The notes below the pieces were generated by a model, which had not been told where the DNA came from, ran no database searches, and was given only the letters and a program-made list of their open reading frames with translations. A stretch of 64,000 nucleotides of DNA from Parcubacteria group bacterium Gr01-1014_31. Lineage in GTDB: Bacteria > Patescibacteriota > Patescibacteriia > Buchananbacterales > GWA2-38-13. Positions 3,118 through 53,785 of the stretch are shown here, in pieces. How positions within the stretch are numbered: position 1 is the first letter of the stretch; each line of letters opens with the position of its first letter. The position numbers and the translations under genes were made by a program. The stretch is from contig VMFR01000002.1 of assembly GCA_007376135.1 (NCBI GenBank), positions 221,870-285,869 on the forward strand, in the 5' to 3' direction.

Positions 3118-4836
3118 TTACTTGGGGGGAGGGGCTATGAGTTGCGGGAAACGTGTTGCCGGAATGGTCCAAAGCGTAAATTGCGGGTCGGCGGCAGTAC
3201 CGATGACCGCGGTGGGCGTGCTGGAGGCAAGCCCGAGCTGTTGGGCAAACCACTCCGCGCTTTCGGTTCTCTTCTCGGTCGTCCGCTCCAAGAGCGTGTT
3301 GCCGACGACCAGTAGCACCTGGGTGCCGGTGGCCTGCGGCACAAGCGCAGCAAATTGGCCTTCCTCCAGGGCGGTTTTCAGCCCGTCCGTGGAAATCGCG
3401 GTCCAGCCGTGGTAGAGCGTGCGCCGCAGAAAGTACCACAGCGGGGTCGGCCAGGCCAGGTCGGCGTCGTAGGCGATGACCAGCGGCTTCATGGTTTTGT
3501 CGCGGTCGCGCGCATAGCCGCGGTCAATAGCTTTTTGCAGTACGGGGTACTGGACGCTGGCAGCTTGCCGGGGTTTGAATCCATCTACTTGCTGTCGCAG
3601 GATGTCATCCAGCTGTTGGTAGCCGAAGCTGCCGCTGTCGCGCCGCAGGATGGAAAAACTCCACCGGTTACCTGATAGGTAGCTGTCGGAAAATGTATTG
3701 ACCCAGGTGTAATAGCCGTCGTAGCCGACCAGCAGGAATAGTCCAGCGACCAGCGCCGGGCGTCCCCATCCCGGCAGCCGCGGGAAAATTTCCGTCCCGG
3801 CAACGGCGACGGCAAGCAGGAGCCACGGCGCCAGCAGCACCAAAAAACGCGGGCTGGGACCGATGACCAACAGGAGCAGCGCGGTCCAAATGATTCCTAA
3901 GAGCACAAAGGCCGCAGGTTTTTGTCTCCAGACGAAGAGCAAAATGAAAATAGCGAGCGCGGCGGCGGCAATCAGTACGGGCGATGCCGTCTGCCAGAGC
4001 GTCGGCGCGAAATTCGCCAGGCGTTCCGCCATGGTTCCTATCTCCTTGCCCGGCAAATGCCGCCACGCGGGCACATCAATACCCAGTAGCGTGGACAGCT
4101 GCAGGTCAAAGTGCTTGCGGTCCAGGTACAGCGCGACGTTGTAGATGGTCAGCGGCAGCGTGACCAACCCCTGCAATCCTTGGCCGATCCAGAACGGCTT
4201 GGCGTAAAACGCGCGGCGTTCGAACAGGAGCAGGTAGGAAATGGCGAGCGGCAGAAAGAAAACGACCGTGTACTTGGACATGAGCGCCAGGCCGTACACC
4301 GTCCAGACGGCGTACCACAGCCGCGGCCGTTCCAGCGCGCACAGGAACAGGTAGACTGCCCACAGCAGCATCGCGAGCGTCACACTTTCCTGCAGGCCGA
4401 GCCGCGACGGCCATACGAGATAGAGTTCCGTCGCGCCCAGCGCGGCCGCGCAAAGTCCTGCAGCATTGCTCTTCAGTTTGCGGCCAAGCACATAGAGCAG
4501 GTAGATGACCGCAATGCCGGCGATGGCGGAGGGCATGCGCAACCCCCAAGCGTTCTCGCCAAACATTCGCAGCGAGAAATGCTGCAGCACGAACGTCAGC
4601 GGCGGGTGATCGTGGAAAGAGAGGTACGCCCACCAGGGCTGCACATCGTACCACTCGGCGGGCGTTCCTTGCGCCTGCGTGCCCAGGAAGTCCAGGTAGC
4701 CCAGCGACCGGATGCCGTAGAACGCTTCGTCGGTCACCACGTCGGCATGGCCCAGCTGCCAGAACCGCAAAAATCCGGCCACCAGGAGGATGGAGAGCAA
4801 AATGAGGGTCGAGCTTTTTGGCTTGACGCGGGTCAT
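3118..4836 (-). CDS. GT39/ArnT-like (PMT_2) membrane glycosyltransferase
   Basis: polytopic membrane protein, N-terminal LRFWQLG...VVTDEAFYG motif (DEx[RY]) typical of ArnT/PMT family; start placed at MTRVKPKS (ORF track extends to 5166 through GC-rich non-coding frame). Confidence 0.75.
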   Translation of the reverse strand: MTRVKPKSSTLILLSILLVAGFLRFWQLGHADVVTDEAFYGIRSLGYLDFLGTQAQGTPAEWYDVQPWWAYLSFHDHPPLTFVLQHFSLRMFGENAWGLRMPSAIAGIAVIYLLYVLGRKLKSNAAGLCAAALGATELYLVWPSRLGLQESVTLAMLLWAVYLFLCALERPRLWYAVWTVYGLALMSKYTVVFFLPLAISYLLLFERRAFYAKPFWIGQGLQGLVTLPLTIYNVALYLDRKHFDLQLSTLLGIDVPAWRHLPGKEIGTMAERLANFAPTLWQTASPVLIAAAALAIFILLFVWRQKPAAFVLLGIIWTALLLLVIGPSPRFLVLLAPWLLLAVAVAGTEIFPRLPGWGRPALVAGLFLLVGYDGYYTWVNTFSDSYLSGNRWSFSILRRDSGSFGYQQLDDILRQQVDGFKPRQAASVQYPVLQKAIDRGYARDRDKTMKPLVIAYDADLAWPTPLWYFLRRTLYHGWTAISTDGLKTALEEGQFAALVPQATGTQVLLVVGNTLLERTTEKRTESAEWFAQQLGLASSTPTAVIGTAADPQFTLWTIPATRFPQLIAPPPK

Positions 4837-5928: not shown

Positions 5929-7179
5929 ATGCAAACTTTTGTCCGCAAGAATCCGCTCGCCGTCATCTTTTTGACGGTTTTTGTTGACCTACTGGGGTAC
6001 GGCATCCTTATTCCGGTGGTGCCGCTGCTGCTGACCGACCCGGTCTCGCCGTACTACCTGTTGCCGGCCGGCTGGTCGGTCGGGCAGGGCTATTTTTTGT
6101 TGGGCGTGCTGCTCGCGACCTACCCGTTGGGGCAATTTTTTGCCGCTCCCATCCTGGGTCAATTGTCCGACCAGTTCGGCCGCAAGAGAATCCTTGCCGT
6201 GTCGCTGGCCGGCACGTGTCTGGGCTATGTGCTCTTCGCGGTCGGGGTCGTTTTGCACAACATACCCTTGCTGTTTGCGTCGCGCCTGCTGGACGGGTTG
6301 ACGGGCGGTAATTTCGCCGTCGCGATGGCGTCCATAGCCGATGTCAGCAAACCCGAGCACCGCGCCAAGAACTTCGGGCTCATCGGCGCGGCGTTCGGCC
6401 TCGGGTTCATCCTCGGGCCGTACTTGGGCGGCAAGCTGTCCGACCCGAATGTTCTCGTCTGGTTTTCCGCCTCGACGCCATTCTGGTTTGCCGCCGGTTT
6501 GAGCCTGCTCAACATCATCTCCATTCTTGCGTTCTTTCCCGAGACCCACCAGACGCGCGCTCCCTGGTCGGCCTTGGATTGGGGAAAGTCGGTGAAGAAT
6601 ATTTTTGCCGCGTTCAAAATACCGGGCGTGCAACTGCTGTTTGCAACGACGTTCCTCATCAACGCCGGTTTCACGTTCTTCATCACCTTCTTCAGCGTGT
6701 TTATGATCAAGCGGTTCGGGTTCCAGCAGGGCGAGATCGGGGATTTTTTCTCGTACATCGGCCTGTGGATCGTCATTACACAGGGAATCATCGTGCGGCA
6801 GCTCGCCGGTCGTTTCCCCGAGGCAAGCATTCTGAAGTTCAGCATTCCGGTGCTTGGCGTGGCGGTCCTGCTGCACTTTTTGCCGAACGGGTGGTCCGGG
6901 CTGCTGCTCGTTGCCCCGGTGCTGGCGGTTGCCAACGGACTGACCCAGGCCAATCTTTCCGCGCTCATCAGCCGTTCGGTGGGGCCCGAGGTCCAAGGCG
7001 AGGTAATGGGCATTACGTCCAGTTTGGCGGCGGTGGCGCAAACCGTCCCGCCGCTGCTGTCTGGGGTCATCGCCGCGGCGCTGTCCCCGGCCGCGCCCAT
7101 TGCGGTCGGCGCCCTGGTGCTGCTCCTGGCGGGTGTGCTGTTTACCCTGCACTACCGCCCCGCCGCGGTATCAACTTAA
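5929..7179 (+). CDS. MFS transporter (drug:H+ antiporter-like)
   Basis: 12 predicted TMs; MFS motif A GQLSDQFGRKRIL between TM2-3. Confidence 0.85.
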   Translation: MQTFVRKNPLAVIFLTVFVDLLGYGILIPVVPLLLTDPVSPYYLLPAGWSVGQGYFLLGVLLATYPLGQFFAAPILGQLSDQFGRKRILAVSLAGTCLGYVLFAVGVVLHNIPLLFASRLLDGLTGGNFAVAMASIADVSKPEHRAKNFGLIGAAFGLGFILGPYLGGKLSDPNVLVWFSASTPFWFAAGLSLLNIISILAFFPETHQTRAPWSALDWGKSVKNIFAAFKIPGVQLLFATTFLINAGFTFFITFFSVFMIKRFGFQQGEIGDFFSYIGLWIVITQGIIVRQLAGRFPEASILKFSIPVLGVAVLLHFLPNGWSGLLLVAPVLAVANGLTQANLSALISRSVGPEVQGEVMGITSSLAAVAQTVPPLLSGVIAAALSPAAPIAVGALVLLLAGVLFTLHYRPAAVST

Positions 7180-7190
7180 CGCGCAATCAA

Positions 7191-7267
7191 AACCATTCTC
7201 TAATTCCCCGTCATTCGACGGGCAGGCGCGCTCGCCCCGCCATCGGCGGGGAATTAGAGAATGGTTA
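7191..7267. repeat. perfect 20-bp inverted repeat (AACCATTCTCTAATTCCCCG ... CGGGGAATTAGAGAATGGTT) with 37-nt loop
   Basis: seen directly; followed by classical terminator 7277-7307 (ACCGGC-tctgattg-GCCGGT + T7) and a third hairpin GGGAGGATGG/CCATCCTCCC at about 7315-7344. Confidence 0.7.
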
Positions 7268-22736: not shown

Positions 22737-24131
22737 TTAGCGGGAAGGACTGCGGTGGCGGGCCCGGGACCCTTCCGTCTGCCAGACCCGGCGGCCGCGG
22801 CGCGCGTTGCCGTGCGGACGGCTCAGGGTGGAACGGCCGTAGGTTCCGCCGTTCCCGGGGCGCTCTTCCGACCGTCGGGCGTGGCGCGGGGAGCCATAGC
22901 GGCTGCTGCCATGGCCGGCATCGGCGAATGGCGCACGCCGGGCCGGCGCGAAGCGGGGACGCGCGGGCATCGGACGCGCGGGCGCGAGTTCCGGCGGGGA
23001 CGACAGCGTCAAGGTGGTTCTGGTCAGTCGTTCGATATCGCGCACCTGGCCGCGCTGGTCGGGAGCGACGAATGTCACGGCGCGGCCGGTTTTCCCGGCG
23101 CGGGCCGTACGGCCGATGCGGTGCACGTAGTCCTCGGGGTCGTCGGGGATGTCGAAGTTGACCACCAGCTCGATGTCCTGCACGTCAATGCCCCGGGCGG
23201 CAATGTCGGTGGCGACCAAGATGCGGTACTTGCCGGATTTGAATCCCTCCATGGCCGCGCGGCGCTGGCTGAGCGAACGGTTGGAGTGCAGCTCGGTCAC
23301 CTGGTGGCCCATGCCGCCGATCGCGCGGCAGATGCGCTTGGCGCCGTGCTTGGTGCGGGAGAACACCAGGATGGTGCCGTGGTAGCGGGCAACCAAGGTG
23401 TCCAGCAGCCGCAGCTTGTCCTCTTTTTTGACCATAAAGAATTCCTGCTCCACATTCTTGACCAAGGTTCCCGCGCGCGCCACCTCGATCTGCAGGGGGA
23501 GTTGCATGAATTGCGTCGCGAGCTGCACGATCTCTTTGGGCATGGTGGCGGAGAACAACATGGTCTGGCGTTCGCGCGGCAGGGCCTGTAGCACCCGCTT
23601 GATCTGGGGTGCAAAGCCCATGTCCAGCATCCGGTCTGCCTCATCCAGCACCACGATCGTGTGGAGCCCAAGGTCAATGCTCTTCTGCTGGACGTGGTCC
23701 AGCAGCCGGCCAGGGGTGGCCACCACGACGTGCGGCTTGTTGCGCAGGGCCTGCAGCTGCGGTCCCATCGGCGCGCCGCCGATGAGCACCGACGTGCGCA
23801 ACCCCAACGCGCTGCCGATCTTTCGCAGCACTTCGTCCACCTGCAGCGCCAGCTCGCGGGTCGGCAACAGGACCAGGCCGCGCCCCTTGGATTGACCCAG
23901 GCGCTGGATCATCGGCACGCCGAACGCCAAGGTTTTGCCGGTGCCCGTCTGGGCGATACCAATGATGTCCTTGCCGCTGATGGCGACCGGGATTGCCTGG
24001 TGCTGGATGGGCGTGGGTGTGGTGAATCCTTGGCGGGTCAGGGCGGCGAGGAAATTTTCCGCGATACCCAGTCCCGCGAAACTGGTCGGGGTTGGGAGAT
24101 TAGTTGTGGCTTGGGGATGTTTGGCATGCAT
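22737..24131 (-). CDS. DEAD-box ATP-dependent RNA helicase with Arg-rich C-terminal tail
   Basis: Q-motif, GTGKT, DEAD, SAT, HRIGRTARAG. Confidence 0.9.
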   Translation of the reverse strand: MHAKHPQATTNLPTPTSFAGLGIAENFLAALTRQGFTTPTPIQHQAIPVAISGKDIIGIAQTGTGKTLAFGVPMIQRLGQSKGRGLVLLPTRELALQVDEVLRKIGSALGLRTSVLIGGAPMGPQLQALRNKPHVVVATPGRLLDHVQQKSIDLGLHTIVVLDEADRMLDMGFAPQIKRVLQALPRERQTMLFSATMPKEIVQLATQFMQLPLQIEVARAGTLVKNVEQEFFMVKKEDKLRLLDTLVARYHGTILVFSRTKHGAKRICRAIGGMGHQVTELHSNRSLSQRRAAMEGFKSGKYRILVATDIAARGIDVQDIELVVNFDIPDDPEDYVHRIGRTARAGKTGRAVTFVAPDQRGQVRDIERLTRTTLTLSSPPELAPARPMPARPRFAPARRAPFADAGHGSSRYGSPRHARRSEERPGNGGTYGRSTLSRPHGNARRGRRVWQTEGSRARHRSPSR

Positions 24132-24238: not shown

Positions 24239-24844
24239 CTACCGGGTAAAGGTGAAACTTTTTACCATTTCCTCAAAGATGGCCGCGTCCGCGGGGGCGC
24301 CGTCGGCGGAAGTAAAGATGAGGCGGTAGAGCTGGCTGCCTTTGGTGAACTGGTATTCAATGACCACGTAGCCGTTGCGCACGCCCGCATAGCGGTTCGC
24401 GGTTGAGCCGCCAACTGTGGTGCTGGTTTTTTCCAGGTCGACGGTGGCATCGGCGATGTCGGCGGGCGTTTTACCGGAGACTTCAATGACCAGCATCCCA
24501 AGGTACTCGCTGCCCAGCCCCGGCAAGGGATTGCGGTCGGCCATGAAGTAGTCGGTCACCGCCGGGTTGCTCGCAGCGATGTCGTTTTTCATCAGGTGTT
24601 GCCAGTACCATTTTTCCGGCCGGCGGATGCGGTACCCCATCGCGCCGTTCTCGTAATCGGCATAGGTGACGGGCGCGCCGCTGGCCGGGGAACTTGATGG
24701 CGTTGCGCTCACGGTCGGCGATGGCAGCGGTGTGGGTGCCGTGTTGATGTTGCCGTTCTCAATAACGGCGGGTTTCGGCGTACAGCCGGCGAGGAACAAC
24801 AGAGCAGTAATGATTATACCGAATCGAACGATGGGTGAATTCAT
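24239..24844 (-). CDS. hypothetical lipoprotein
   Basis: signal peptide with lipobox LAGC; Pro/Thr/Ser-rich linker. Confidence 0.6.
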   Translation of the reverse strand: MNSPIVRFGIIITALLFLAGCTPKPAVIENGNINTAPTPLPSPTVSATPSSSPASGAPVTYADYENGAMGYRIRRPEKWYWQHLMKNDIAASNPAVTDYFMADRNPLPGLGSEYLGMLVIEVSGKTPADIADATVDLEKTSTTVGGSTANRYAGVRNGYVVIEYQFTKGSQLYRLIFTSADGAPADAAIFEEMVKSFTFTR

Positions 24845-24851
24845 AAGACTA

Positions 24852-25478
24852 TTATTTTATCCAAAATCCAGAAACTTCAGCCAAGAATAATGTGGGTATG
24901 CTCATTAATGTTAGTAGCCAGAGAAAGAAAATGAATTTTAGTATTTTGTAATCTTTAAATTTTAATATTTGGGGTATTGATTCCTTATTGAGTATTGCCT
25001 GTTCAATTTCATCTCCTTCGATAAGCAATTGTTCTGCTCTGGCTGCATAGTCATAATATGATTTCCGGGTTGCAGCTATATGCCTAATTTTTGCGAGTAA
25101 AGTTTTTTGGTGATAATTTTTCAAAGTTTGAGATATGTCTCTGTATTTGATGAATGTCTCAATGGTGAATAGCAAGAAAGATAATGCGACTATGCGTGCC
25201 AATATTTGTATAAACCCTGAGGAGAATTCATCTTTCTTTGCGAATACAATTGTTAGCAGGACTCCGACGAAAGATATGATGGTAAGCTTTATTTTAAGTA
25301 AATAATCATCGAAACTTTTGGAATATTCCATTAAGGTTTTATAGATTTCTGTTTTTTCAATAAATTCTTGTTTTGTTATTTTCTGCCGTTCATCATCGCT
25401 AGCGGCTTCCATATAAATATTTGCTATACAATCAATCTTTTGGCCACCCCACCGGGTTCCCACATTGTCCCGCCTCAC
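24852..25478 (-). CDS. low-GC (about 30% GC) hypothetical 3-TM membrane protein, likely horizontally acquired
   Basis: strong compositional anomaly; Lys/Ile/Phe-rich; 2 TM + cytoplasmic coiled region + C-terminal TM; probable start at MEAASDD (about 25412). Confidence 0.55.
   Translation of the reverse strand: MRRDNVGTRWGGQKIDCIANIYMEAASDDERQKITKQEFIEKTEIYKTLMEYSKSFDDYLLKIKLTIISFVGVLLTIVFAKKDEFSSGFIQILARIVALSFLLFTIETFIKYRDISQTLKNYHQKTLLAKIRHIAATRKSYYDYAARAEQLLIEGDEIEQAILNKESIPQILKFKDYKILKFIFFLWLLTLMSIPTLFLAEVSGFWIK
25445..25466 (-). pseudogene. tRNA-Glu 3'-half fragment (decayed duplicate with 13-nt internal deletion)
   Basis: GCCCCACCGGG..TTCCCACATTG collinear with the intact tRNA at 25579-25650. 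Confidence 0.5.
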
Positions 25479-25561
25479 GGCGGGATGCTCATAATTGCTG
25501 CGAAATTTATTTCACTTCGTTCATAAATTTCGGCAATTATGGCAAAAGCTCGTCCGTATTG

Positions 25562-25668
25562 ATTCTGACAAATTTTTTTAGCCCCACCGGGAATCGAACC
25601 CGGGTTCCCACATTGAAAGCGTGGTGTCCTAGCCACTAGACGATGGGGCCAAAAAAATTTGTCAGAAT
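25562..25668. repeat. perfect 18-bp inverted repeat flanking the tRNA (ATTCTGACAAATTTTTTT ... AAAAAAATTTGTCAGAAT)
   Basis: seen directly; tRNA lies exactly in the loop. Confidence 0.8.
25579..25650 (-). tRNA. tRNA-Glu (anticodon UUC)
   Basis: cloverleaf reconstructed by hand: acceptor GGCCCCA/TGGGGCT, T-arm CCGGGTTCGATTCCCGG, anticodon loop CTTTCAA; discriminator A, CCA not encoded. Confidence 0.85.
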
Positions 25669-25911
25669 ATTAATTTGAGAAATGCCAGTTTGTGGAAGTT
25701 GAGGCCGCGGGCCGAAATCCCGCTATCTTGCGGGATGTGGTGTCTGCCCCGTCGGACCTGTTCCGTCGAATGGCGGGATGACGGGGTCCTAGCCACTACC
25801 CCGCCGCTGGCGGGGCAGGGACGATTCTGCCATAACACGCGTAGCGGGGAGTCCCGCTACCTGGCCTATGATACGGGAGAACGGGTGAATCGTCAATGCA
25901 ACGCTGCGCGC

Positions 25912-26661
25912 TCAATCCCGGCGCGTGAGAACGAAATTGCGGGTGCCAAACCACTGCGCCATGCGGTCGGTGTAGGTAACCCCGGCGCTATTGAGGGAAA
26001 GTTCGTAGGCGACCCACTGGCGCAGGTATTCGTCCTGTCGTTCTTTCGGCACAGCCTTGGACAACTCTTTCAGCGCGTAGAGATTGAAGAATTTTTCTTC
26101 CTGGATGGCGAGGCCGGCATCATTGAGCCAGGTTCGGAAATCGTTCTCGCGGACGAATGCTTGGTAGTCGGCTTCGTTGCCGCGCATCGCCCGCCAACGC
26201 CTGCGCCAGTCGCGGAAGCGTTCGCGCCACGGATAGTTGCCCTGCAGCCGTGCCAGGAAATGGCCGGCGTCGTAGTTGAGGTACATCACCGTGCCGGGCT
26301 GCAGCCAGCGGGCGCAGGTGCGCAGGTACCGCGGGCGCTGGTAGACGTGTTCCAGCACGCTGAACGAGACCACGACATCGAACCGTTCGTTAGCTGTAGG
26401 CGCGACATCGTAGACCGGCGTGGTGCGGATGTCGGCGTTGCAGCCCCTGAGAGCGGTTTTCGCGCGCGCGCAGGCGGCCGCATCGGGGTCCAGGCCGACG
26501 TAGCGCACTTGCGGGAACGCGCGCAGCAAAAGCGCGAAGTGGAGGCCGTCCCCGCAGCCCAGGTCCGCGATGCTCAGTCGCCCGCCGCGCTGGGTAATGA
26601 GCTGGGCGATACGGTCGAGGCAGTAGAGTTTTGCGGCGTTGCCGCCGGTCCAAATATCCAT
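25912..26661 (-). CDS. class I SAM-dependent methyltransferase
   Basis: motif I IADLGCGDG; Methyltransf_11/23-like post-I motifs. Confidence 0.8.
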   Translation of the reverse strand: MDIWTGGNAAKLYCLDRIAQLITQRGGRLSIADLGCGDGLHFALLLRAFPQVRYVGLDPDAAACARAKTALRGCNADIRTTPVYDVAPTANERFDVVVSFSVLEHVYQRPRYLRTCARWLQPGTVMYLNYDAGHFLARLQGNYPWRERFRDWRRRWRAMRGNEADYQAFVRENDFRTWLNDAGLAIQEEKFFNLYALKELSKAVPKERQDEYLRQWVAYELSLNSAGVTYTDRMAQWFGTRNFVLTRRD

Positions 26662-26735: not shown

Positions 26736-29090
26736 TTACCGGACCTCGTCGCCCATTGGATAGTAGTCCAGGTGCACGCGGCTGACATTGACGACGTGCG
26801 ACCGCGGCAGCGACAGTGCATCGTAGGCCGCCGGATCGGCGATGCGGCGCTTCACACCATTGTCCAGCAGATAGACGTCCGTTTCGCCGTCAACCTTCAC
26901 CAGCCGGACCTGGGGGTAGCTTTCCATGTCGATCTCGTTGATGACGACGACATTGCCCCAGTAGTTGCCCGGGTAGGAAACGAACACCGTAGGCGAAGGG
27001 AGGCCCAACTTTAGCCAGCGTTCCTGCGGGCGCTTGTAGAGGTAGTGGATCTGCGGGTCCGCGGGAGTTCGCACCAGCCGCGCGTCCGGGTAGCGGTCCA
27101 GCGTCGCCTGCGACACCTCGCGGACGTCGGGCCATTGGTAGCCGTAGGCGGCAAAGGAGGCCGGGCCGGCGATGAGGTGCTTTTGGCCGTTCAAAATGGC
27201 GTAGACGTCCGGGGTGCCTGCCACGCGCAGCAGCGCGGAAGCCTGGGTGTACAGCAGGTTGGAGCTGCCTAGCACCTGGCCACTGGACGGGTACGACGGC
27301 GCGATGGTCACGGTCGTTGGCCCAGACTTCGGCAGCCAGCGCCCGACGCCCTCGGTGTACAGCAGTTTGATCTCGCTGTCGGTCAGCGCGCGGCCAAAGA
27401 TGGTCAGCTCGTCCAGCGTGATGTCGCCGTTGACGATGCCGAACGACGCATTCTGCGTCCCGCCGACCAGGAACGCGTCGAGCAAACCGGCTGGCGTGGC
27501 CGACAGGGTCGCTGCTTCGCGCTTCAATCCGCGGTAAGCGTGGGTTTGGGCCGGCTCGCCATTGACGTACACTTTGCCGGCGCCCCCGTCGAAATCCCAC
27601 GAGACGGTCATGAACATCCACTGGCCGGCGGCTGGCGCTGCATTTTGTACGAAGTAGCGATAGTCCACGTCGTCGGCATCTTCCAGGCCGAAGTAGAGCT
27701 TGTTCTTCTCATTGAGGTAGACGTTGGCGATGCCCTTGGCGCCGGTTTTGCCGATGGTCAGGTATTTATCGTTGACCTGTTGGTAGGCGGCGTTATTGGT
27801 GAACAGTTGATGGTGGATGTCGTCGCTGTTGTCCCAGTTGGGTTTGAACCAGAACGCAATGGTGCCCGCGGACGGGTTGGCGTTGTCGCGCCCGTCGTAC
27901 TGCACGCGCGTTACGTCCGTCAGGGTCACACCTTCACTGCGGCGGCCGCCAGAGTTTTCCGTCACCGACGGCACCCCCAGGGCGATGCCCAGCGGGTCGC
28001 CAAGCGAAAAGTCCCCGTGCAGCCCCTGGTCGTAGCTGGCGTAGAACATCAGGTCATGGCGCGACGTCACGCCCAGGACGCGGCCGCTATTGTCGTAGGC
28101 GGCCGGCGTGCCGGCGCGATCGCGCGTCACGAAGCTCAACGCCGTCGTTTTCGCGTTGGCGGAAAACAGGTCCTTGGATTCCACTGAGAAATAGTAGGTG
28201 GTGTTGGGCTGCAGGCCGGTGATCTGCGCGGTGTGCGTGTAGTCGCGCGGTCCGCTGATGGTGATGGTACGGCCAAGCTTGTCGGTCGGGCCCCAGCGCA
28301 CCACGCCATTGGCCAGGGTGGTCGAGCGCCAGGAAATTTCCGCGGACGTATCCGCCAGCCCCGGGTCATTCCCGGACACCGGACGGATGGCGGTCAGCTC
28401 CAGCACGGGACGGTTCGCCGCGCTGGTCGTGCGGAAGCTCAACCCCTCGGATACGGCAGTGTTGCCGCCGCTGTCCTTGGATTTGACGCGGAAGTGGTAC
28501 GTCGTCAGGGGCTTCAGTCCCGTGATGAGCATTTCATGCACGGTGACGCGGGCGCCGTCCTGTTTTTTGCTGCCGTAGTTGGAGGTCAGGCCGTACTCCA
28601 CCAGACTGTCGGTGGCCTCATCGGTGCGCCACTGGACAAGCACCTCCGTGCCGCCCTGGTAGGGAACGGCAACGTCGGTCAAACCGGGCGCGTCGCGGTC
28701 AACGGCCTTGGTCGTTTTGAAGGTCTGGTCAAAACTGGCCGTTTCCTGGCCGGGGCTCGAGGAGATGACCCGGAAGTGGTAGGTGGTCTCCCCCCTCAGG
28801 CCGTTGAGGGTGACCTGGTGGCTGGAACGCTGTTCGCCCTCGTAGCCGACGGTGGAACCGTGCGCGGACGTCAGGCCGTACTCCACGCGTCCGGTCGAGG
28901 GGATGTTGGTCGACCAGCTGATAGTCGCCGTTGAGTCCAGGGCGCTGACCCGGATGTTCGCAACAATGAGCGCCAGTTGCCCATGGACAACAAAAGGAGC
29001 TACGGCAAACAGGATTGCCGCGCTCAATGAGATAATGAAATTCGGGGTGATTCGCTCCATACCATGAACTATAGGACGTAAAAAAGGCAT
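26736..29090 (-). CDS. secreted surface protein: 3x fibronectin type III (purple-acid-phosphatase-N-like) + LamG/concanavalin-like domain + tandem C-terminal repeat domains
   Basis: repeated TxxISWxT..VEYGLT..LxxLxPxTTYHFRV units; LamG-type ...LDELTIFGRALTDSEI; two about 60-aa repeats ending YPxxRLV; N-term signal/TM. Confidence 0.7.
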   Translation of the reverse strand: MPFLRPIVHGMERITPNFIISLSAAILFAVAPFVVHGQLALIVANIRVSALDSTATISWSTNIPSTGRVEYGLTSAHGSTVGYEGEQRSSHQVTLNGLRGETTYHFRVISSSPGQETASFDQTFKTTKAVDRDAPGLTDVAVPYQGGTEVLVQWRTDEATDSLVEYGLTSNYGSKKQDGARVTVHEMLITGLKPLTTYHFRVKSKDSGGNTAVSEGLSFRTTSAANRPVLELTAIRPVSGNDPGLADTSAEISWRSTTLANGVVRWGPTDKLGRTITISGPRDYTHTAQITGLQPNTTYYFSVESKDLFSANAKTTALSFVTRDRAGTPAAYDNSGRVLGVTSRHDLMFYASYDQGLHGDFSLGDPLGIALGVPSVTENSGGRRSEGVTLTDVTRVQYDGRDNANPSAGTIAFWFKPNWDNSDDIHHQLFTNNAAYQQVNDKYLTIGKTGAKGIANVYLNEKNKLYFGLEDADDVDYRYFVQNAAPAAGQWMFMTVSWDFDGGAGKVYVNGEPAQTHAYRGLKREAATLSATPAGLLDAFLVGGTQNASFGIVNGDITLDELTIFGRALTDSEIKLLYTEGVGRWLPKSGPTTVTIAPSYPSSGQVLGSSNLLYTQASALLRVAGTPDVYAILNGQKHLIAGPASFAAYGYQWPDVREVSQATLDRYPDARLVRTPADPQIHYLYKRPQERWLKLGLPSPTVFVSYPGNYWGNVVVINEIDMESYPQVRLVKVDGETDVYLLDNGVKRRIADPAAYDALSLPRSHVVNVSRVHLDYYPMGDEVR

Positions 29091-29116
29091 AATTTAGCTT
29101 ATTTTTACGATTTTTC

Positions 29117-29145
29117 ATATTACCATAAGTCAAAAGTTTTGTCAA
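29117..29145 (-). promoter_or_regulatory. sigma70-type promoter TTGACA-17-TAATAT (minus strand) for the FN3/LamG gene
   Basis: hexamers and 17-nt spacing read directly. Confidence 0.55.
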
Positions 29146-29224
29146 TAGAAACGAAAAAAGGACTGTTTGCTCCGCGAGCATACAGCCCTTTTGCGTTACC
29201 TTCCTTTGGGTTCCCAAGTCTTCC

Positions 29225-29389
29225 CTAGCGGACGACCGGCTTTCCCTGCAGTTCTTTCGGGATGAACTTCCTGCAGATCGGGCACGGACTCCGTCCTGGG
29301 TAGCGGACGCCATGTCCGCAGCATTGGGATGAAAAGAACTGTTTGAATTGGTCAACGAGGAAGGTGAACATTCCTAGCTTTTTTTGCAT
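29225..29389 (-). CDS. small Cys-rich protein (54 aa; CCGHG...CPIC)
   Basis: own promoter TTGACA-17-TATAGT (29430-29458), SD AAGGAG, and downstream imperfect 13-bp hairpin + T6 terminator (about 29180-29215). Confidence 0.55.
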   Translation of the reverse strand: MQKKLGMFTFLVDQFKQFFSSQCCGHGVRYPGRSPCPICRKFIPKELQGKPVVR

Positions 29390-29476
29390 GGGACTCCTTC
29401 CTGCAAAAGGGCATTTTTGTTTAAAAAGCACTATACCATTTATTAAAACTTTTGTCAATGCATCCGTGGTAAATGT

Positions 29477-29505
29477 TTGTTTCGTAGCAACTGACCCCGT
29501 ATAAT
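29477..29505 (+). promoter_or_regulatory. promoter TTGTTT-17-TATAAT for 29523..29747/VanW operon
   Basis: read directly. Confidence 0.5.
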
Positions 29506-29522
29506 GGATAGGTGTTTTCCCT

Positions 29523-29747
29523 ATGACGTCTTCCAAGCCCGCAAGTATCGTTAGTGGAACGGTTGTCGAAGTCGGACCCGAGAGCGTTTCGGTCCGCGCG
29601 GAGGGCGGTGTTTGGCTGGTGCCTCGCGCCTGCCTTCCCCAGACCATGCGGGCGGGCGACCGAGTGACGCTGTGCGCGCTGGCCGCTGATGCCGCGGACC
29701 GCGAAGAGTTGGCGAAAACGCTCCTCAACACGCTGCTGTCGAGTTGA
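29523..29747 (+). CDS. small hypothetical protein (74 aa), stop overlaps TTG start of VanW gene (TTGA)
   Basis: ORF track; promoter upstream; translational coupling. Confidence 0.5.
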   Translation: MTSSKPASIVSGTVVEVGPESVSVRAEGGVWLVPRACLPQTMRAGDRVTLCALAADAADREELAKTLLNTLLSS

Positions 29748-31603
29748 ATCTTTCTGTCATGGCCAGTCCGTATTATCTGGGTGGCGCCGCGGCGGGTCGG
29801 CCGCGCCGCATATGGCGGTGGTTTTTGGTTGCCTGCGTGCTTTCCGCCAGCGGCTTAATGGTCGGCGTGCTGGGCGCGTACCAGTGGCAGTACCGCGGGC
29901 GCGTGTATCCGGGGGTGTCGGTCGCCGGTCAGGTTGCCGGCGGATTGCCGCCCGCGGAGCTGACGGCGGCGTTGGCCGCGCGGCGCGATTCCCTTTTGAC
30001 GCACGGTTTGTGGCTTGACCTGGGCGGGGAGCTGGTGAATCTGCCGCTGGAGATCACTTCATCGGACCCGGACTTGGCGCGCGTGCCGGTGCAGTATGAC
30101 CTGGCCGATGCCGTTGCCCAAGCGTATGGCGTGGGCCGCGGCGGGACGCTGTGGTCGCAGTTGGTGGAACCTTTGCGCGTGCGGTGGTTCGGTCTTGACG
30201 TGCAGATGCGTTACGATCTTGACGAAGCCGTCGCGCAGGAACTGCTGCGGTCGGTGCTGAGCAGCCGGGAAACGCCGCCGCGTCCTGCGCGGTTGAGCGT
30301 TGAGGGCGGGGTGCTGCGCGTGTTGCCTGAACAAGATGGCGTACTGTTCGACTATGCCGCCGCGACGCGGGAGGTCAAAGACCACCTTGCCCGCATGGAT
30401 TCAGCGCCGATGCCAATGCGTCTGGTTGGCGCGCCCGCGCCGTTCAAGGTGGCACAGACAGCTGATGCTTTTGCGAAGGCCCAAGCCCTGACCCAGACCA
30501 CCACGCCGACCTTGGTGTACGGATCGCGGCGTTGGGAAGTCGGCCGCGGCCTGCTGCTGCAGTGGCTGCAATTCGAAGCAGGAAAGGACGGGCGCGTGCG
30601 TCTGGGTTTCAATGCCGCGGCCGTTGCCGAGTTCCTCGCGCCGGTTTCCGCGGTCATCAACGTTACGCCTCAGGATGCCAAATTCCGGCTGGAGAACGGA
30701 CGGGTTGTAGAGTTCCAGGTCAACCGTGACGGAAAGGAAGTGGATGTTCCTTCAACGACGGCGCGACTGGTGCAGGATTATTTGGAGGCGGGTTCCTCGG
30801 TGGTGCGGCTGGCCGTTGTGGTAGCACCGGCGAAATTCGCGACTGGCGACCTCAATGACCTGGGCATTCAGGAGCTGCTTGGTGTCGGGCGGTCGAATTT
30901 CGGGGGCAGTCCCAAGAACCGGCGCATCAACATCGCGCAGGGGGTCAAGTCGCTCAACGGCATTCTCATCGCGCCCGACGAGGAGTTCTCGCTGCTCAAG
31001 GCGCTCGGTCCGGTGGATGCGGAACACGGCTACCTGCCGGAACTGGTCATCAAGGGCGACCGCACCACGCCGGAGTTCGGGGGCGGGCTGTGCCAGATCG
31101 GTACGACGACCTTCCGGGCGGCGATCCGTTCAGGGCTCCCCATTACGCAGCGGCAGAGCCACAGTTTTCGCGTGCGGTACTACGACCCGCCGGGCATGGA
31201 CGCGACCATCTACGACCCGGCGCCGGATTTCCGTTTTAAAAACGACACTGGTCGCCACATCCTTTTTCTGGCGGAGATCGACGGCGACGAGCTGGTGTTC
31301 AGTTTCTACGGCACCAAGGATGGCCGCGTGGCCGAGGTGCCCGATAAAGCGGTGATTCTCAGTACGATACCTTCCGGTCCGGTACGCTACATTGAAACCG
31401 ACGATCTTAAGCCGGGAGAAAAAAAACTGGTCGAGAAGCCCGCTCCCGGCGGCACCGCCACCTTCCACTATAAAGTGACCTACCCCGACGGCCGCGTGAT
31501 GGAGCAGGATTTCAAAAGTACGTATCGTCCGTGGGCGGAAACCTGGCTGGTGGGTAGAACACCGACGGGTACGGAGGCCGTGCTGGGAGGCAGCACGCCC
31601 TGA
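29744..31603 (+). CDS. VanW family protein with N-terminal TM anchor
   Basis: GGGLCQIGTTTFRAAIRSGL...NDTGRHILF VanW-domain signature; possible alternative ATG start at 29759. Confidence 0.8.
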   Translation: MNLSVMASPYYLGGAAAGRPRRIWRWFLVACVLSASGLMVGVLGAYQWQYRGRVYPGVSVAGQVAGGLPPAELTAALAARRDSLLTHGLWLDLGGELVNLPLEITSSDPDLARVPVQYDLADAVAQAYGVGRGGTLWSQLVEPLRVRWFGLDVQMRYDLDEAVAQELLRSVLSSRETPPRPARLSVEGGVLRVLPEQDGVLFDYAAATREVKDHLARMDSAPMPMRLVGAPAPFKVAQTADAFAKAQALTQTTTPTLVYGSRRWEVGRGLLLQWLQFEAGKDGRVRLGFNAAAVAEFLAPVSAVINVTPQDAKFRLENGRVVEFQVNRDGKEVDVPSTTARLVQDYLEAGSSVVRLAVVVAPAKFATGDLNDLGIQELLGVGRSNFGGSPKNRRINIAQGVKSLNGILIAPDEEFSLLKALGPVDAEHGYLPELVIKGDRTTPEFGGGLCQIGTTTFRAAIRSGLPITQRQSHSFRVRYYDPPGMDATIYDPAPDFRFKNDTGRHILFLAEIDGDELVFSFYGTKDGRVAEVPDKAVILSTIPSGPVRYIETDDLKPGEKKLVEKPAPGGTATFHYKVTYPDGRVMEQDFKSTYRPWAETWLVGRTPTGTEAVLGGSTP

Positions 31604-31652: not shown

Positions 31653-32104
31653 CGCTCGGACATCACGTTGTCGGACGGGCGGAATTTCACCAGCACACCA
31701 GGAATTTCAAGTACCTGCGCTCTCACTTGAGCTACCGTCGACAACCGTTTTTTACCGGGCAAACTCTGCAGACAAGGAAGTCACCCAAAGGCGCAGTCGA
31801 GCGGGCGCCAGACATGTCCTTACGGATGACTCCCCGCTTGTCGTGCCTGCAGAATACTGGACCGTGGGTGGAAAGGGGGTGGCTCCGACGAGGTCGGAGC
31901 GAACGTGAAAAGGACACGTTGCACACCTACGGCCCAAGATTCTACAGGCACCGCATTTCCTCCTAGGCACACAAGGCGCCCGAGGGTTGTCTACAGAGTT
32001 TGCGGGGTAAAAAAATATTTGCCTTTGGCAAAGGTCGAACGTAACTGTCAACAATAGCACAGGCGGAAAACCTTGTCAAGTAGGAGAGCTAAAAAATGCA
32101 AAAA

Positions 32105-52742: not shown

Positions 52743-53672
52743 TTATCGTTCCGGCCAACGGTAGCCCGGTACGGTCAGGAAGCGATGGGCTTCCAGCGCC
52801 GCTAGCGCTCCATCGCCGGCGGAAATAACTGTCTGCTTATAGGCGACATCCGTCACGTCACCGGCCGCGAATGCTCCCGGAATATTGGTGCGCTGCCGGG
52901 CGTCGACCAGGATCTCATGGGCATCGTTAGTTGCGAACGGCGCCACCAGCGCCGGGTCGGTATCCGAGCCGATCTCCAGGAACAAACCGTTGACCGCCAG
53001 CTCGCGGGTCGCGCCGGCCTGGTCGCGAACAGTCACGCCGTTGACGAACCGCTCACCGTGCACGGCCGTCACCTCGCTGTTTGGCACCAGCTGCACCGCG
53101 CTGGCCTTGAGTTTGGCGACCGTGATCTCGTCGGCGCGGAACGTGTCGCGCCGGTGAATAAGGTAGACGGGTTTGGCGATCTCGGCCAGTTCCAATGCCG
53201 CTTCGACGGCCGCGTTCCCGCCGCCGACGATGGCAATGGGCTTGCCCTTGAACAGCGGACCGTCGCAGGTGGCGCAGGTGGATACCCCGCGACCGAAGAA
53301 TTTATTCTCGCCGGGCACGTTGAGCCGCCGCGGGACCTTGCCAGCGGTGATGATGAGCGCGCGGCCGGAAATGGTTTCGCCGTTCTCCAGGGCGACGTGA
53401 AAGGTTCCGCCCGGCGTAATGACCCTCACTTTTGTCGCCGCCATCGGGGTGCCGAGCGCGGTCACCTGCGCTTTGAACTGTTCCATCAGCTCCAATCCGG
53501 GCATTGCCTTCGCGCCCGGGTAGTTCTCCACCCAGTTGGAGAGAGCCGTTGCCCCGCCCGTTTCCGGACTGACCACGATGCTCTGCAGCTGCTTGCGCAT
53601 GCTGTAGATGGCCGCGGTCAACCCCGCGGCGCCCGCGCCGATGATGATGACATCGTAGGTTTTCCCCGCCAT
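52743..53672 (-). CDS. trxB: thioredoxin-disulfide reductase
   Basis: FAD motif DVIIIGAGAAG, redox CATCDG, NADPH motif; start trimmed to MAGKTYD. Confidence 0.9.
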   Translation of the reverse strand: MAGKTYDVIIIGAGAAGLTAAIYSMRKQLQSIVVSPETGGATALSNWVENYPGAKAMPGLELMEQFKAQVTALGTPMAATKVRVITPGGTFHVALENGETISGRALIITAGKVPRRLNVPGENKFFGRGVSTCATCDGPLFKGKPIAIVGGGNAAVEAALELAEIAKPVYLIHRRDTFRADEITVAKLKASAVQLVPNSEVTAVHGERFVNGVTVRDQAGATRELAVNGLFLEIGSDTDPALVAPFATNDAHEILVDARQRTNIPGAFAAGDVTDVAYKQTVISAGDGALAALEAHRFLTVPGYRWPER

Positions 53673-53785
53673 ACCCGGTAGGACAATGGTCAAATGGGTA
53701 ATTTTTTCCTGCTCCTCGCTATGGGTTCCCCCCAACTTTTGGCATCCCGCGCCCGTCCGTTGTCCTACCGGGCAGAGGGGTGAGA

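Follow-up and report, generated by a model that had tools for sequence, protein, structure and literature searches.

How does a complete tRNA-Glu gene come to lie among fragments of another one? Fragments of tRNA genes found beside intact ones are usually taken as the scars of integration events, and the tRNA-Glu locus of the Parcubacteria group bacterium Gr01-1014_31 raises the question of whether this explanation holds. The locus lies in a stretch of 64,000 nucleotides of contig VMFR01000002.1 (the window from here on), and the initial annotation saw in it either the attachment-site (att) remnants of a low-GC island or a decayed tandem tRNA array. The comparative data reviewed here differ from that picture: the fragments are the parts of one old tRNA-Glu gene, which has been cut up and holds the intact gene within its anticodon-loop region. 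A complete tRNA gene thus stands inside the halves of its predecessor, in a palindrome-decorated arrangement which is stably inherited in a clade of Parcubacteria.

Positions are those of the window, and the features of the locus all lie on the minus strand and are described in that reading, from higher to lower coordinates. One scan of species-representative genomes with the neighbouring methyltransferase gave L005, the closest relative (methyltransferase 96% identical, about 88-92% nucleotide identity to the window), one metagenome scan with the tRNA core gave L008 and L009, and further contigs were fetched with VanW homologues as anchors. The relatives discussed below are L005, the L008 group (L008 to L013), L014 (VanW 66% identical), L016, L020 and a distant clade, L024 to L030 (VanW 43% identical); in L015, L017, L018, L019, L021 and L022 VanW homologues are present and the contigs stop short of the tRNA-Glu locus.

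The old tRNA-Glu gene and its pieces

The old gene can be followed from its promoter onwards. A sigma-70-like promoter, TTGACG-17-TATCAT (25868-25896), is recognised by its match to the consensus; no other promoter-like site exists on the minus strand between 25350 and 25950. The motif TTGAC[G/A]-17-TA[C/T]CAT also precedes the plain tRNA-Glu gene of L014 and the loci of L016 and L020. In the window the promoter is followed by a conserved leader hairpin, GTAGCGGGACTCCCCGCTAC (GTAGCGG..CCGCTAC, 25841-25860), which is identical in L005, present after the promoter of L014 and L020 as GTAGCGG..CCGCTA(C), and partial in L016. The first piece of tRNA sequence, GGCAGAATCGTC (25820-25831), the 5' end of the outer gene, joins a degenerate acceptor strand to a D-stem strand (tRNA positions 1-12, approximately), where the intact tRNA has GGCCCCATCGTC; its counterparts are GGCGCAATCGTCT in L005 and GGCCCCATCG in L008. 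Since this piece sits where the tRNA of L014 begins, the outer pieces are taken to be the original gene of the locus.

Two further pieces lie on the 5' side of the intact gene, where the initial annotation had already noticed fragments of the D-arm region: TAGTGGCTAGGAC (25786-25798), a 13-nt exact match to positions 13-25 which is common to L005 (10 nt), L008 (16 nt) and L020, and GACACCAC (25737-25744), an 8-nt exact and collinear match to positions 23-30, for which L020 has GACACCACGCTTT. The 3' half, CAATGTGGGAACCCGG/TGGGGTGGC (25443-25467), covers positions 36-51 and 60-72, with exact matches over 16 nt (36-51, CAATGTGGGAACCCGG at 25452-25467) and 10 nt (60-69, CCCGGTGGGG at 25447-25456). 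It is the decayed copy described earlier at some 110 bp on the 3' side (111 nt from the tRNA, as measured here), with 13 nt of the T-loop deleted between CCGGG repeats and one change in the acceptor strand. Displaced 3' halves are also found in L008, L016 and L020.

All the pieces lie on the strand of the intact tRNA and in tRNA order, collinear and non-overlapping, covering positions 1-12 (approximately), 13-25, 23-30, 36-51 and 60-72. The lack of mutual overlap indicates parts of one gene and not serial duplicates. In a control with 2000 dinucleotide shuffles of the tRNA flanks, the best exact match of 16 nt was never reached and the 47 nt of summed matches were reached in 5, so that the fragment matches pass the shuffling check proposed in the initial annotation and stand above chance.

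From 25831 to 25443 the order begins with GGCAGAATCGTC, the palindrome CCCCGCCagcGGCGGGG, TAGTGGCTAGGAC, a palindrome of the form CCCCGTC...GACGGGG, CA, GACACCAC and A; it continues with the palindrome TCCCGCaagataGCGGGA, TTTC, the hairpin GGCCcgcGGCC, TCAACTTCC, an AT-rich leader, the intact tRNA and its AT-rich trailer; and it ends with a long AT-rich hairpin, the palindrome TCCCGCCgtgaGGCGGGA and CAATGTGGGAACCCGG/TGGGGTGGC. About 270 bp separate the outer 5' part (25831-25737) from the outer 3' part (25467-25443). The outer copy of the window cannot fold, its acceptor strands being GGCAGAA and TGGGGTG and its T-loop deleted, and ARAGORN calls no tRNA on the joined pieces.

The decayed tandem array proposed in the initial annotation does not agree with this layout: the pieces do not overlap, follow one another in order, and flank the intact gene on both sides behind the native promoter. 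No decayed copies overlapping in tRNA positions were found in the window, although L008 and L009 do carry tandem units of a 5' half plus spacer.

The intact gene and its inverted repeat

The intact, inner gene is a tRNA-Glu(UUC) (25579-25650) and is the functional gene of the locus. ARAGORN reports tRNA-Glu(ttc) at 25578-25651 on the minus strand, and the Rfam tRNA model, RF00005, gives 25579-25650 a score of 61.4 bits (gathering score 29), as befits a canonical bacterial tRNA gene; with both programs it is the sole tRNA above threshold in the window. It has a G1-U72 pair and the discriminator A, CCA is not encoded, and all 72 nt are identical in L005 and L014.

Its location in the loop of a perfect 18-bp inverted repeat, first reported in the initial annotation, was confirmed. 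The upstream arm, ATTCTGACAAATTTTTTT (25651-25668), is held in the AT-rich leader (25651-25693) and the downstream arm, AAAAAAATTTGTCAGAAT (25562-25579), forms the trailer; they pair at 18 of 18 positions and, with the acceptor stem included, over 28 nt at 93%. No other copy of the arm sequence occurs in the window (0.02 expected). As the leader is complementary to the trailer, the acceptor stem is prolonged to about 25 bp, and in the predicted fold the inner cloverleaf stands on a helix of that length (minimum free energy -60.5 kcal/mol, z = -6.3).

Complementarity between leader and trailer is significant in the window, L008, L016 and L020 (0 of 1000 shuffles each) and is not present in L014 or in L005, the latter being without a downstream arm. 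The arms vary in sequence across lineages (CCCGCCTAAATTTCTACCGC in L008, CAAATTTTACCGCC in L016, TCTTATTCCCAATTTTTACCGCCA in L020), yet complementarity is kept, both arms changing together. Thus, in L008 the spacers flanking the full tRNA gene are 20-nt inverted repeats at 95%, and in L020 the arms are complementary at 22 of 24 positions. The arms of the window directly prolong the acceptor stem; in L008, L016 and L020 the acceptor 5' strand is repeated, as ACCGC(C), at the end of the upstream arm, which pairs with the 3' end of the tRNA itself and with the trailer. The window leader bears a marginal similarity to those of L005, L016 and L020 (equalled in 70, 117 and 165 of 2000 shuffles, respectively), so that homology of the leaders is suggested rather than demonstrated. 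The pairing is perhaps either selected, as a processing helix or a recombination substrate, or renewed by some copying process.

A possible origin of the perfect repeat, snap-back (fold-back) synthesis at a break, was also weighed. This idea is weakened by the related lineages, which carry equivalent repeats at the same site with co-varying arms.

The locus in related genomes

Nesting is common to L005, L008 to L013, L016 and L020, with a different state of preservation in each. L005 keeps part of the outer 5' half (ATCGTCT, TAGTGGCTAG and a variant set of palindromes) together with the identical inner tRNA, and its lipoprotein gene follows 27 nt after the tRNA; it has no trailer arm, no 3' piece and no counterpart of the low-GC gene without homologues (ORFan) found in the window.

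In the L008 group, whose structure was recovered in several assemblies from different datasets, the outer 5' half runs from GGCCCCATCG through a hairpin, GTCTAGTGGCTAGGAC and CCCGTCatacGACGGGG to TCCGCCggaGGCGGA CAATG. It is followed by extra units, each made of the 5' half (positions 1-35) and a 27-nt spacer, one of them in L008, L010 and L012 and two in L009 and L013, and then by the full tRNA-Glu gene (acceptor GCCGCCA) and, after a spacer of 18 nt, by a 3' half (positions 38-72). The differing number of extra units among members of the group indicates that recombination between the repeats is ongoing. L016 has the leader/trailer repeat and a displaced 3' half which, with the trailer, is duplicated in tandem; this duplication and the copy-number variation between L008 and L009 indicate that partial tandem duplication happens at the locus. 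At the end of the L016 contig (1-40), about 110 nt past the tRNA-Glu complex, the 3' part of another tRNA (GCGGGTAAGGGGAGTCGAACCCC), truncated where the contig stops, lies on the opposite strand.

The most complete arrangement is that of L020. Promoter and hairpin are followed by the outer 5' part, in which CCCGTCatgcGACGGGG stands at 25/26; a pair of 15-nt palindromes separates U35 from C36, and after CAATG(T) come a 34-nt leader, the inner tRNA, a 26-nt trailer and the outer 3' part with two T-loop palindromes. All the outer pieces are present here, and when the inserts are removed in silico ARAGORN calls a normal tRNA-Glu.

Plain genes are found in two places. L014 has the same type of promoter, the GTAGCGG hairpin, a tRNA-Glu identical over 72 nt and a terminator, and the distant clade L024 to L030 a plain tRNA-Glu with promoter and terminator. 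A neighbour-joining tree of VanW, based on this single gene and not robust for its deeper branches, places the nested lineages across the base of the ingroup, with L014 in their midst. In L014 an inverted fragment resembling a T-arm and 3' end of a tRNA (CCACGACGGGAATCGAACGAGGGGG; 3740-3775, minus-strand reading) lies downstream of the tRNA-Glu at a distance of about 115-140 nt; it is not called as a tRNA and may be the remnant of another one.

Palindromic inserts

Two types of unit recur among the inserts of the outer gene, CCCCGCC-N3-GGCGGGG (also TCCGCC-N3-GGCGGA) and CCCGTC-N4-GACGGG(G). The first insert of the window, hp1 (CCCCGCC-AGC-GGCGGGG, 25799-25815), splits the D-arm at 12/13; at this site L005 has a variant and an extra hairpin, and L008 has a different hairpin 2 nt away. 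The second, hp2 (CCCCGTC...GACGGGG, 25747-25786), stands at 25/26; in the window its loop has taken up another insertion and, since the boundary is ambiguous, the first base of hp2 is shared with the preceding piece. The compact form CCCGTC-AT[A/G]C-GACGGGG occupies the same tRNA position in L008 and L020 and is almost invariant, and hp2 is absent from L005.

The old anticodon-loop region is filled by a block (25694-25735) composed of hpA (TCCCGC-aagata-GCGGGA, 25718-25735), the hairpin GGCC-cgc-GGCC (25703-25713) and TCAACTTCC (25694-25702). A homologous block exists in L008 (TCCCGCtctacGGCGGGA TTACGGCTTCCGGCCTCAACTTT), and L005 retains its first hairpin only. On the other side of the intact gene, a long, imperfect, AT-rich hairpin (25487-25543), specific to the window and with no counterpart seen in the relatives, lies in the spacer that separates the trailer from the old 3' half, whose CAATG is abutted by the palindrome hpC (TCCCGCC-gtga-GGCGGGA, 25468-25485). 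The combination of a palindrome with CAATG is kept in the window, L008 (TCCGCCggaGGCGGA CAATG), L016 and L020, and hpC resembles the outer part of the L008 repeat arms (CCCGCC...GGGCGGG). The three CCCGC..GCGGGATG hairpin units listed in the initial annotation were located at 25466-25487, 25716-25737 and 25759-25780, the third being a weaker hairpin that lies within hp2; GCGGGATG itself is not enriched across the window.

Pairing within the palindromes is kept by compensatory changes, such as TCAGCC..GGCTGA against TCCGCC..GGCGGA, and in TCAGCCcaaGGCTGA of L016 by a double change; L020 carries the identical 15-mer TCCGCCTGGGGCGGA at two sites. In the window, CCCGTC-N-GACGGGG has 3 matches at two loci (0.25 expected) and CCGCC-N3-6-GGCGG has 7 (1.9 expected), and the sole match to the latter in the 21.9 kb of L010 is at the tRNA locus, so that outside these sites such units are rare. 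The palindromes may be the collapsed arms of earlier nested copies, or the arms may have grown from such a palindrome.

Both GC-rich types also stand side by side elsewhere in the window, at 7191-7266 (CCCGTCattcGACGGG, CCCCGCCatcGGCGGGG), as a solo copy of the hp2 type (7206-7222) and a unit of the hp1 type (7233-7249) inside a 15-bp AT-rich inverted repeat with arms CCATTCTCTAATTCC and GGAATTAGAGAATGG. This site is intergenic, after an open reading frame (ORF) ending at 7179 and before a sequence which by eye is terminator-like.

The low-GC segment and the DNA on the 3' side

Homology between the window and L005 ends at the 3' end of the tRNA and resumes at 24798 (3094 of L005), inside the signal peptide of the lipoprotein. 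The 780 bp in between (24799-25578) are specific to the window, with 72 nt in their place in L005, and have a GC content of 31-37% in a genome of about 63%. They contain the trailer arm, the spacer, hpC, the old 3' half and the ORFan, and they also give the lipoprotein gene a new, AT-rich start. The low-GC ORFan (24852-25412) has 186 aa from its ATG, the gene caller placing the start at a GTG at 25463, and its product looks membrane-associated by eye. Its sole match among 5.8 billion proteins is itself, it has no match in Pfam and nothing significant in PHROG (best E 0.16), and blastn of the whole segment against phage and plasmid collections gave no match. A PADLOC match of 44 residues (36-79) to the PD-(D/E)xK model (PD_DExK, E 6e-4) is too weak and is not relied upon.

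The DNA on the 3' side of the tRNA complex was recovered in four lineages, no two of which agree in it: the window has the ORFan, the L008 group a low-GC his operon, and L014 and L005 have other genes again. The 5' side keeps the promoter. Since the 3' DNA is non-syntenic or foreign in every lineage recovered, the locus acts as a recombination hotspot, which upholds that part of the initial annotation. In the L008 group a block of 41-45% GC, as against 58-62% upstream, lies directly 3' of the complex (6100-14224 in L008, 1-8700 in L010) and carries a TrpR-like gene and a his operon with HisZ/HisS-like, HisG, HisD, HisC/B, HisH, HisA/F and HisIE. A histidine-biosynthesis operon is unusual for Parcubacteria.

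The comparison with relatives suggested in the initial annotation cuts both ways. There is indeed a presence/absence polymorphism, L005 being without the ORFan, the trailer arm and the 3' piece, but the 3' pieces and the repeats occur in L008, L016 and L020, which are free of the ORFan. The trailer repeat and the 3' half therefore predate the acquisition of the ORFan, and L005 has most likely lost them. In the same way, the occurrence of nesting in related lineages means that it predates the insertion of the ORFan and is not its footprint.

Origin of the nested arrangement

The explanation which we consider probable, with moderate confidence, is that one tRNA-Glu transcription unit was duplicated into itself. 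The original gene behind the conserved promoter and hairpin would now be a non-functional shell around a complete copy with its own leader and trailer, and this shell would have gathered small GC-rich palindromes of two types and undergone deletions. The whole unit would be transcribed from the single upstream promoter, and the inner tRNA would be cut from the long precursor by ordinary end-processing enzymes, possibly aided by cleavage of the leader/trailer helix. Nesting may go back to a full copy that was inserted, flanks included, into the anticodon loop or stem of the resident gene, or to a pair of partial tandem duplications, one of leader and 5' half and the other of 3' half and trailer. 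Recombination among the nested direct repeats could then have produced the variants seen in the relatives and, possibly, the collapse to a plain gene in L014, and the ORFan segment would be a later, separate acquisition beside the old 3' end.

Several observations weigh against this explanation. The evidence for a single promoter and for the processing steps consists of a consensus match and of conservation, from which both are only predicted. The inner copy lies at about 35/36 in the window (before hpC and CAATG) and at about 40/41 (after CAATG) in L008, L016 and L020, so that a single ancestral event needs an extra rearrangement, or else the events were independent. Moreover, lineages with only 60-65% identity in their VanW proteins have almost the same hp2 and outer pieces, a degree of conservation above the expectation for a neutral pseudogene shell. 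L014, with its plain gene, groups inside the nested lineages in the single-gene tree, and this placement requires reversion or repeated origin. Finally, the intact outer gene of L020 is not accounted for, nor, if the arms are mere debris, is the complementarity that they have retained.

The position of the inner copy, the conservation of hp2 and the outer pieces and the intactness of the outer gene in L020 are the reasons for keeping a functional or selfish-element reading, unlikely as it is, under consideration. According to it the nested arrangement is a maintained device, either a self-supplying homing cassette or an expressed outer RNA whose inserts are removed or serve as a processing scaffold. 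In the first form, a unit of leader, tRNA and trailer would home into the anticodon region and supply the function it destroys, so that the host could not lose it; in the second, Bacteria would have their first multi-insert 'tRNA within a tRNA'. A maintained device would explain the near-invariance of hp2 and the outer pieces, the intact outer gene of L020 and the retained complementarity of the arms.

Classical integrase-mediated insertion into the tRNA-Glu gene, with the pieces as duplicates of the attL/attR type and the element mostly deleted since, is likewise unlikely. It would account for the foreign DNA of low GC content that follows the locus on its 3' side, in the window as in the L008 group (his operon), for the joint absence of ORFan, trailer arm and 3' piece from L005, for the tandem duplication of 3' half and trailer in L016, and for the start of the 3' piece in the anticodon loop, which we take to be a known crossover sublocation. 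However, the pieces are the non-overlapping parts of one gene, those upstream are not the product of an integration that restores the 3' part of a tRNA, and the same pieces occur in L008, L016 and L020, which have no ORFan. The ORFan, for its part, lies outside the interval from tRNA to fragment, the 3' piece (25443-25467) standing between them; it is thus not bounded by the tRNA and a 3' repeat, nor is the repeat tied to the island. Pfam scans of the nine ORFs flanking the locus in the window showed no integrase or recombinase domain, and the Pfam lists of L001 to L004 and of 8.7 kb of the L010 island include no recombinase. The att-site remnants of the initial annotation are not sustained by this evidence. 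It was also considered that the DNA beyond the 3' piece might be the native downstream sequence of the L005 tRNA (a displaced attB half), but the similarity is not significant (207 of 2000 shuffles).

Taken separately, the two forms of a maintained device are each improbable, and equally so. A mobile, self-rescuing cassette of arm, tRNA-Glu and arm would insert in the anticodon region of the resident gene and replace the function destroyed, leaving palindromes as collapsed arms. The arms abut the tRNA in four lineages with lineage-specific sequences, the insertion point in the shell differs between the window and L008, L016 and L020, hpC (TCCCGCC..GGCGGGA + CAATG) matches the outer arms of L008 (CCCGCC...GGGCGGG + CAAGATG), and the functional copy of L008 has the acceptor GCCGCCA where its shell has GGCCCCA, all of which such a cassette would accommodate. 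Nevertheless, no transposase or nuclease was seen with the unit in those ORFs of the window that were scanned, there is no second copy in 64 kb, target-site duplications are not consistent, and the upstream arm of L008, L016 and L020 pairs with the tRNA's own 3' end instead of simply flanking the gene. Furthermore, no viral, phage or plasmid copies were found in a viral-contig scan with the tRNA core or by blastn. A single viral contig (L023) matched the palindrome with CAATG; it has no tRNA or tRNA pieces, and the match was judged to be due to chance.

In a functional composite RNA, the outer tRNA and its hairpin inserts would be under selection, either as a tRNA that loses its inserts or as a scaffold that stabilises or times the release of the inner one. 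This agrees with the outer pieces of L020, which are intact and reconstitute a tRNA-Glu, with the placing of most inserts in or near loops or junctions (about 12/13, 25/26, 35/36 in the anticodon loop and 56/57 in the T-loop), with the near-invariance of hp2 across deep lineages and with the compensatory changes that keep the palindromes paired. It fits poorly with the outer copy of the window, which is unable to fold and receives no ARAGORN call, with L005, which is entirely without the 3' half, and with L008 and L016, where one half is missing in whole or in part; no core of a group I intron was detected, and we know of no bacterial machinery that removes such inserts.

Chance similarity or an assembly artefact, for which one might invoke a Logan assembly that breaks inside the tRNA and the frequency of short GC-rich hairpins at 63% GC, is effectively refuted by the 16-nt match found in none of 2000 shuffles, by identical independent assemblies and by homologous structures in other organisms and datasets.

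What the locus means depends on which of these explanations is true. If the outer gene is debris, the locus is a clear record of an essential single-copy gene which was broken and replaced without loss of function, and a caution that fragments of tRNA genes can be misleading evidence for att sites. Should the outer copy or the flanking repeat have a function, the biology of disrupted tRNAs would reach Bacteria, beyond Archaea and eukaryotes, with a bearing on the origin of tRNA introns and split tRNAs.

Neighbourhood of the locus and further features of the window

The sequence of the window is identical to ENA contig k139_644634 and to the Logan assembly, in which the break inside the tRNA consists of two contigs with a 30-nt overlap, both matching the window. 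On the minus strand the locus is followed by a 201-aa lipoprotein-like gene (24239-24844) and a DEAD-box helicase (22737-24131) and preceded by an S-adenosylmethionine (SAM) methyltransferase (25912-26661) and a large FN3/laminin-G protein (26736-29090). The plus strand carries a VanW-family gene (29744-31603), and trigger factor and NusA, also nearby, mark a bacterial genome.

A second low-GC patch (28850-29600, 46-49% GC against about 64% on either side) separates the divergent FN3 and VanW genes. The gene calls place small ORFs of 74 aa and 54 aa in it, and an ORF of 74-80 aa just upstream of VanW recurs in relatives.

A tRNA-like element below threshold lies at 31671-31741 on the minus strand, with the anticodon loop CUUGAAA and an Rfam tRNA score of 20.7 bits (gathering score 29). 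In the window it goes uncalled by ARAGORN, which calls its homologues in L014 and L016 tRNA-Ser(UGA). It is preceded by about 150 nt of conserved GC-rich sequence (region 31671-31900), also found in L014 and L016 and structured by eye, and followed by a hairpin and a T-run that by eye resemble a terminator; no Rfam family matches the region 31671-31900 at E<=1.

An intergenic, imperfect 27-nt inverted repeat with a 67-nt spacer (53663-53783; core CCGGTAGGACAATGG / CCGTTGTCCTACCGG) may be operator-like. On inspection it proved unrelated to the tRNA locus.

Comparison with known systems

The att scars left by islands and prophages share with the locus a partial 3' copy of the tRNA, starting from the anticodon loop and lying downstream of the intact gene, as well as low-GC foreign DNA, loss of synteny on the 3' side and a presence/absence polymorphism with respect to the closest relative. 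Unlike them, the locus has no integrase that could be found, its foreign gene does not lie between the repeats, 5' pieces are present upstream too, and the pieces are complementary, palindrome-interrupted parts of one gene, inherited independently of the island. Three of the features that define such scars are lacking.

In Archaea, tRNA genes with multiple introns and split tRNA genes are known, and a mobile-element model has been put forward for the disruption of tRNA genes (Sugahara et al. 2012, PMC3293823). The likeness lies in the several short hairpin inserts at non-canonical positions, in a 5' fragment upstream of a complete gene, in the heterogeneity among close relatives and in the complementary flanks, which recall the leader pairing of split halves. 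The locus differs in being bacterial, in having a complete copy inside the interrupted one and in that the interrupted copy of the window is defective. Its inserts are by eye simple hairpins without the flanking 3-nt bulges of a bulge-helix-bulge motif, and the outer pieces join to a cloverleaf in L020 and not in the window, as judged with ARAGORN.

Patescibacteria are reported to have group I introns at 35/36 in the genes of tRNA-Asn and of tRNA-Asp (Nakagawa et al. 2026, PMC13011429). The phylum is the same, and the site after U35 is that of the main interruption in L020 (GCTTT, inserts, CAATG) and of the break of the half-copies in L008; the inserts, however, are hairpins of 15-60 nt or a whole tRNA, and not a catalytic intron of at least 200 nt. 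A remnant of such an intron was looked for, and no Rfam match was obtained at E<=10 in 24500-26500, nor any at the gathering threshold across the window.

Repetitive extragenic palindromes (REP/REPIN) and miniature inverted-repeat transposable elements (MITE) resemble the inserts as GC-rich palindromes of 15-20 nt, of few types, at several intergenic sites and in part as doublets or nested. The palindromes described here occupy two loci in 64 kb and are concentrated in one dead tRNA gene, with a copy number far too low for a family to be assigned with confidence, and no transposase was identified with them among the ORFs scanned. In the leader/trailer stems of rRNA operons, which are substrates of RNase III, a mature RNA is likewise bracketed by long, lineage-variable complementary flanks, but in L008, L016 and L020 the leader arm pairs with the 3' strand of the tRNA and would compete with the acceptor stem. 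To our knowledge, a leader/trailer processing stem has not been described for a bacterial tRNA gene, and searches of the literature gave no account of a nested bacterial tRNA gene. Among the known systems, then, the locus is best described as a variant of tRNA-locus scarring.

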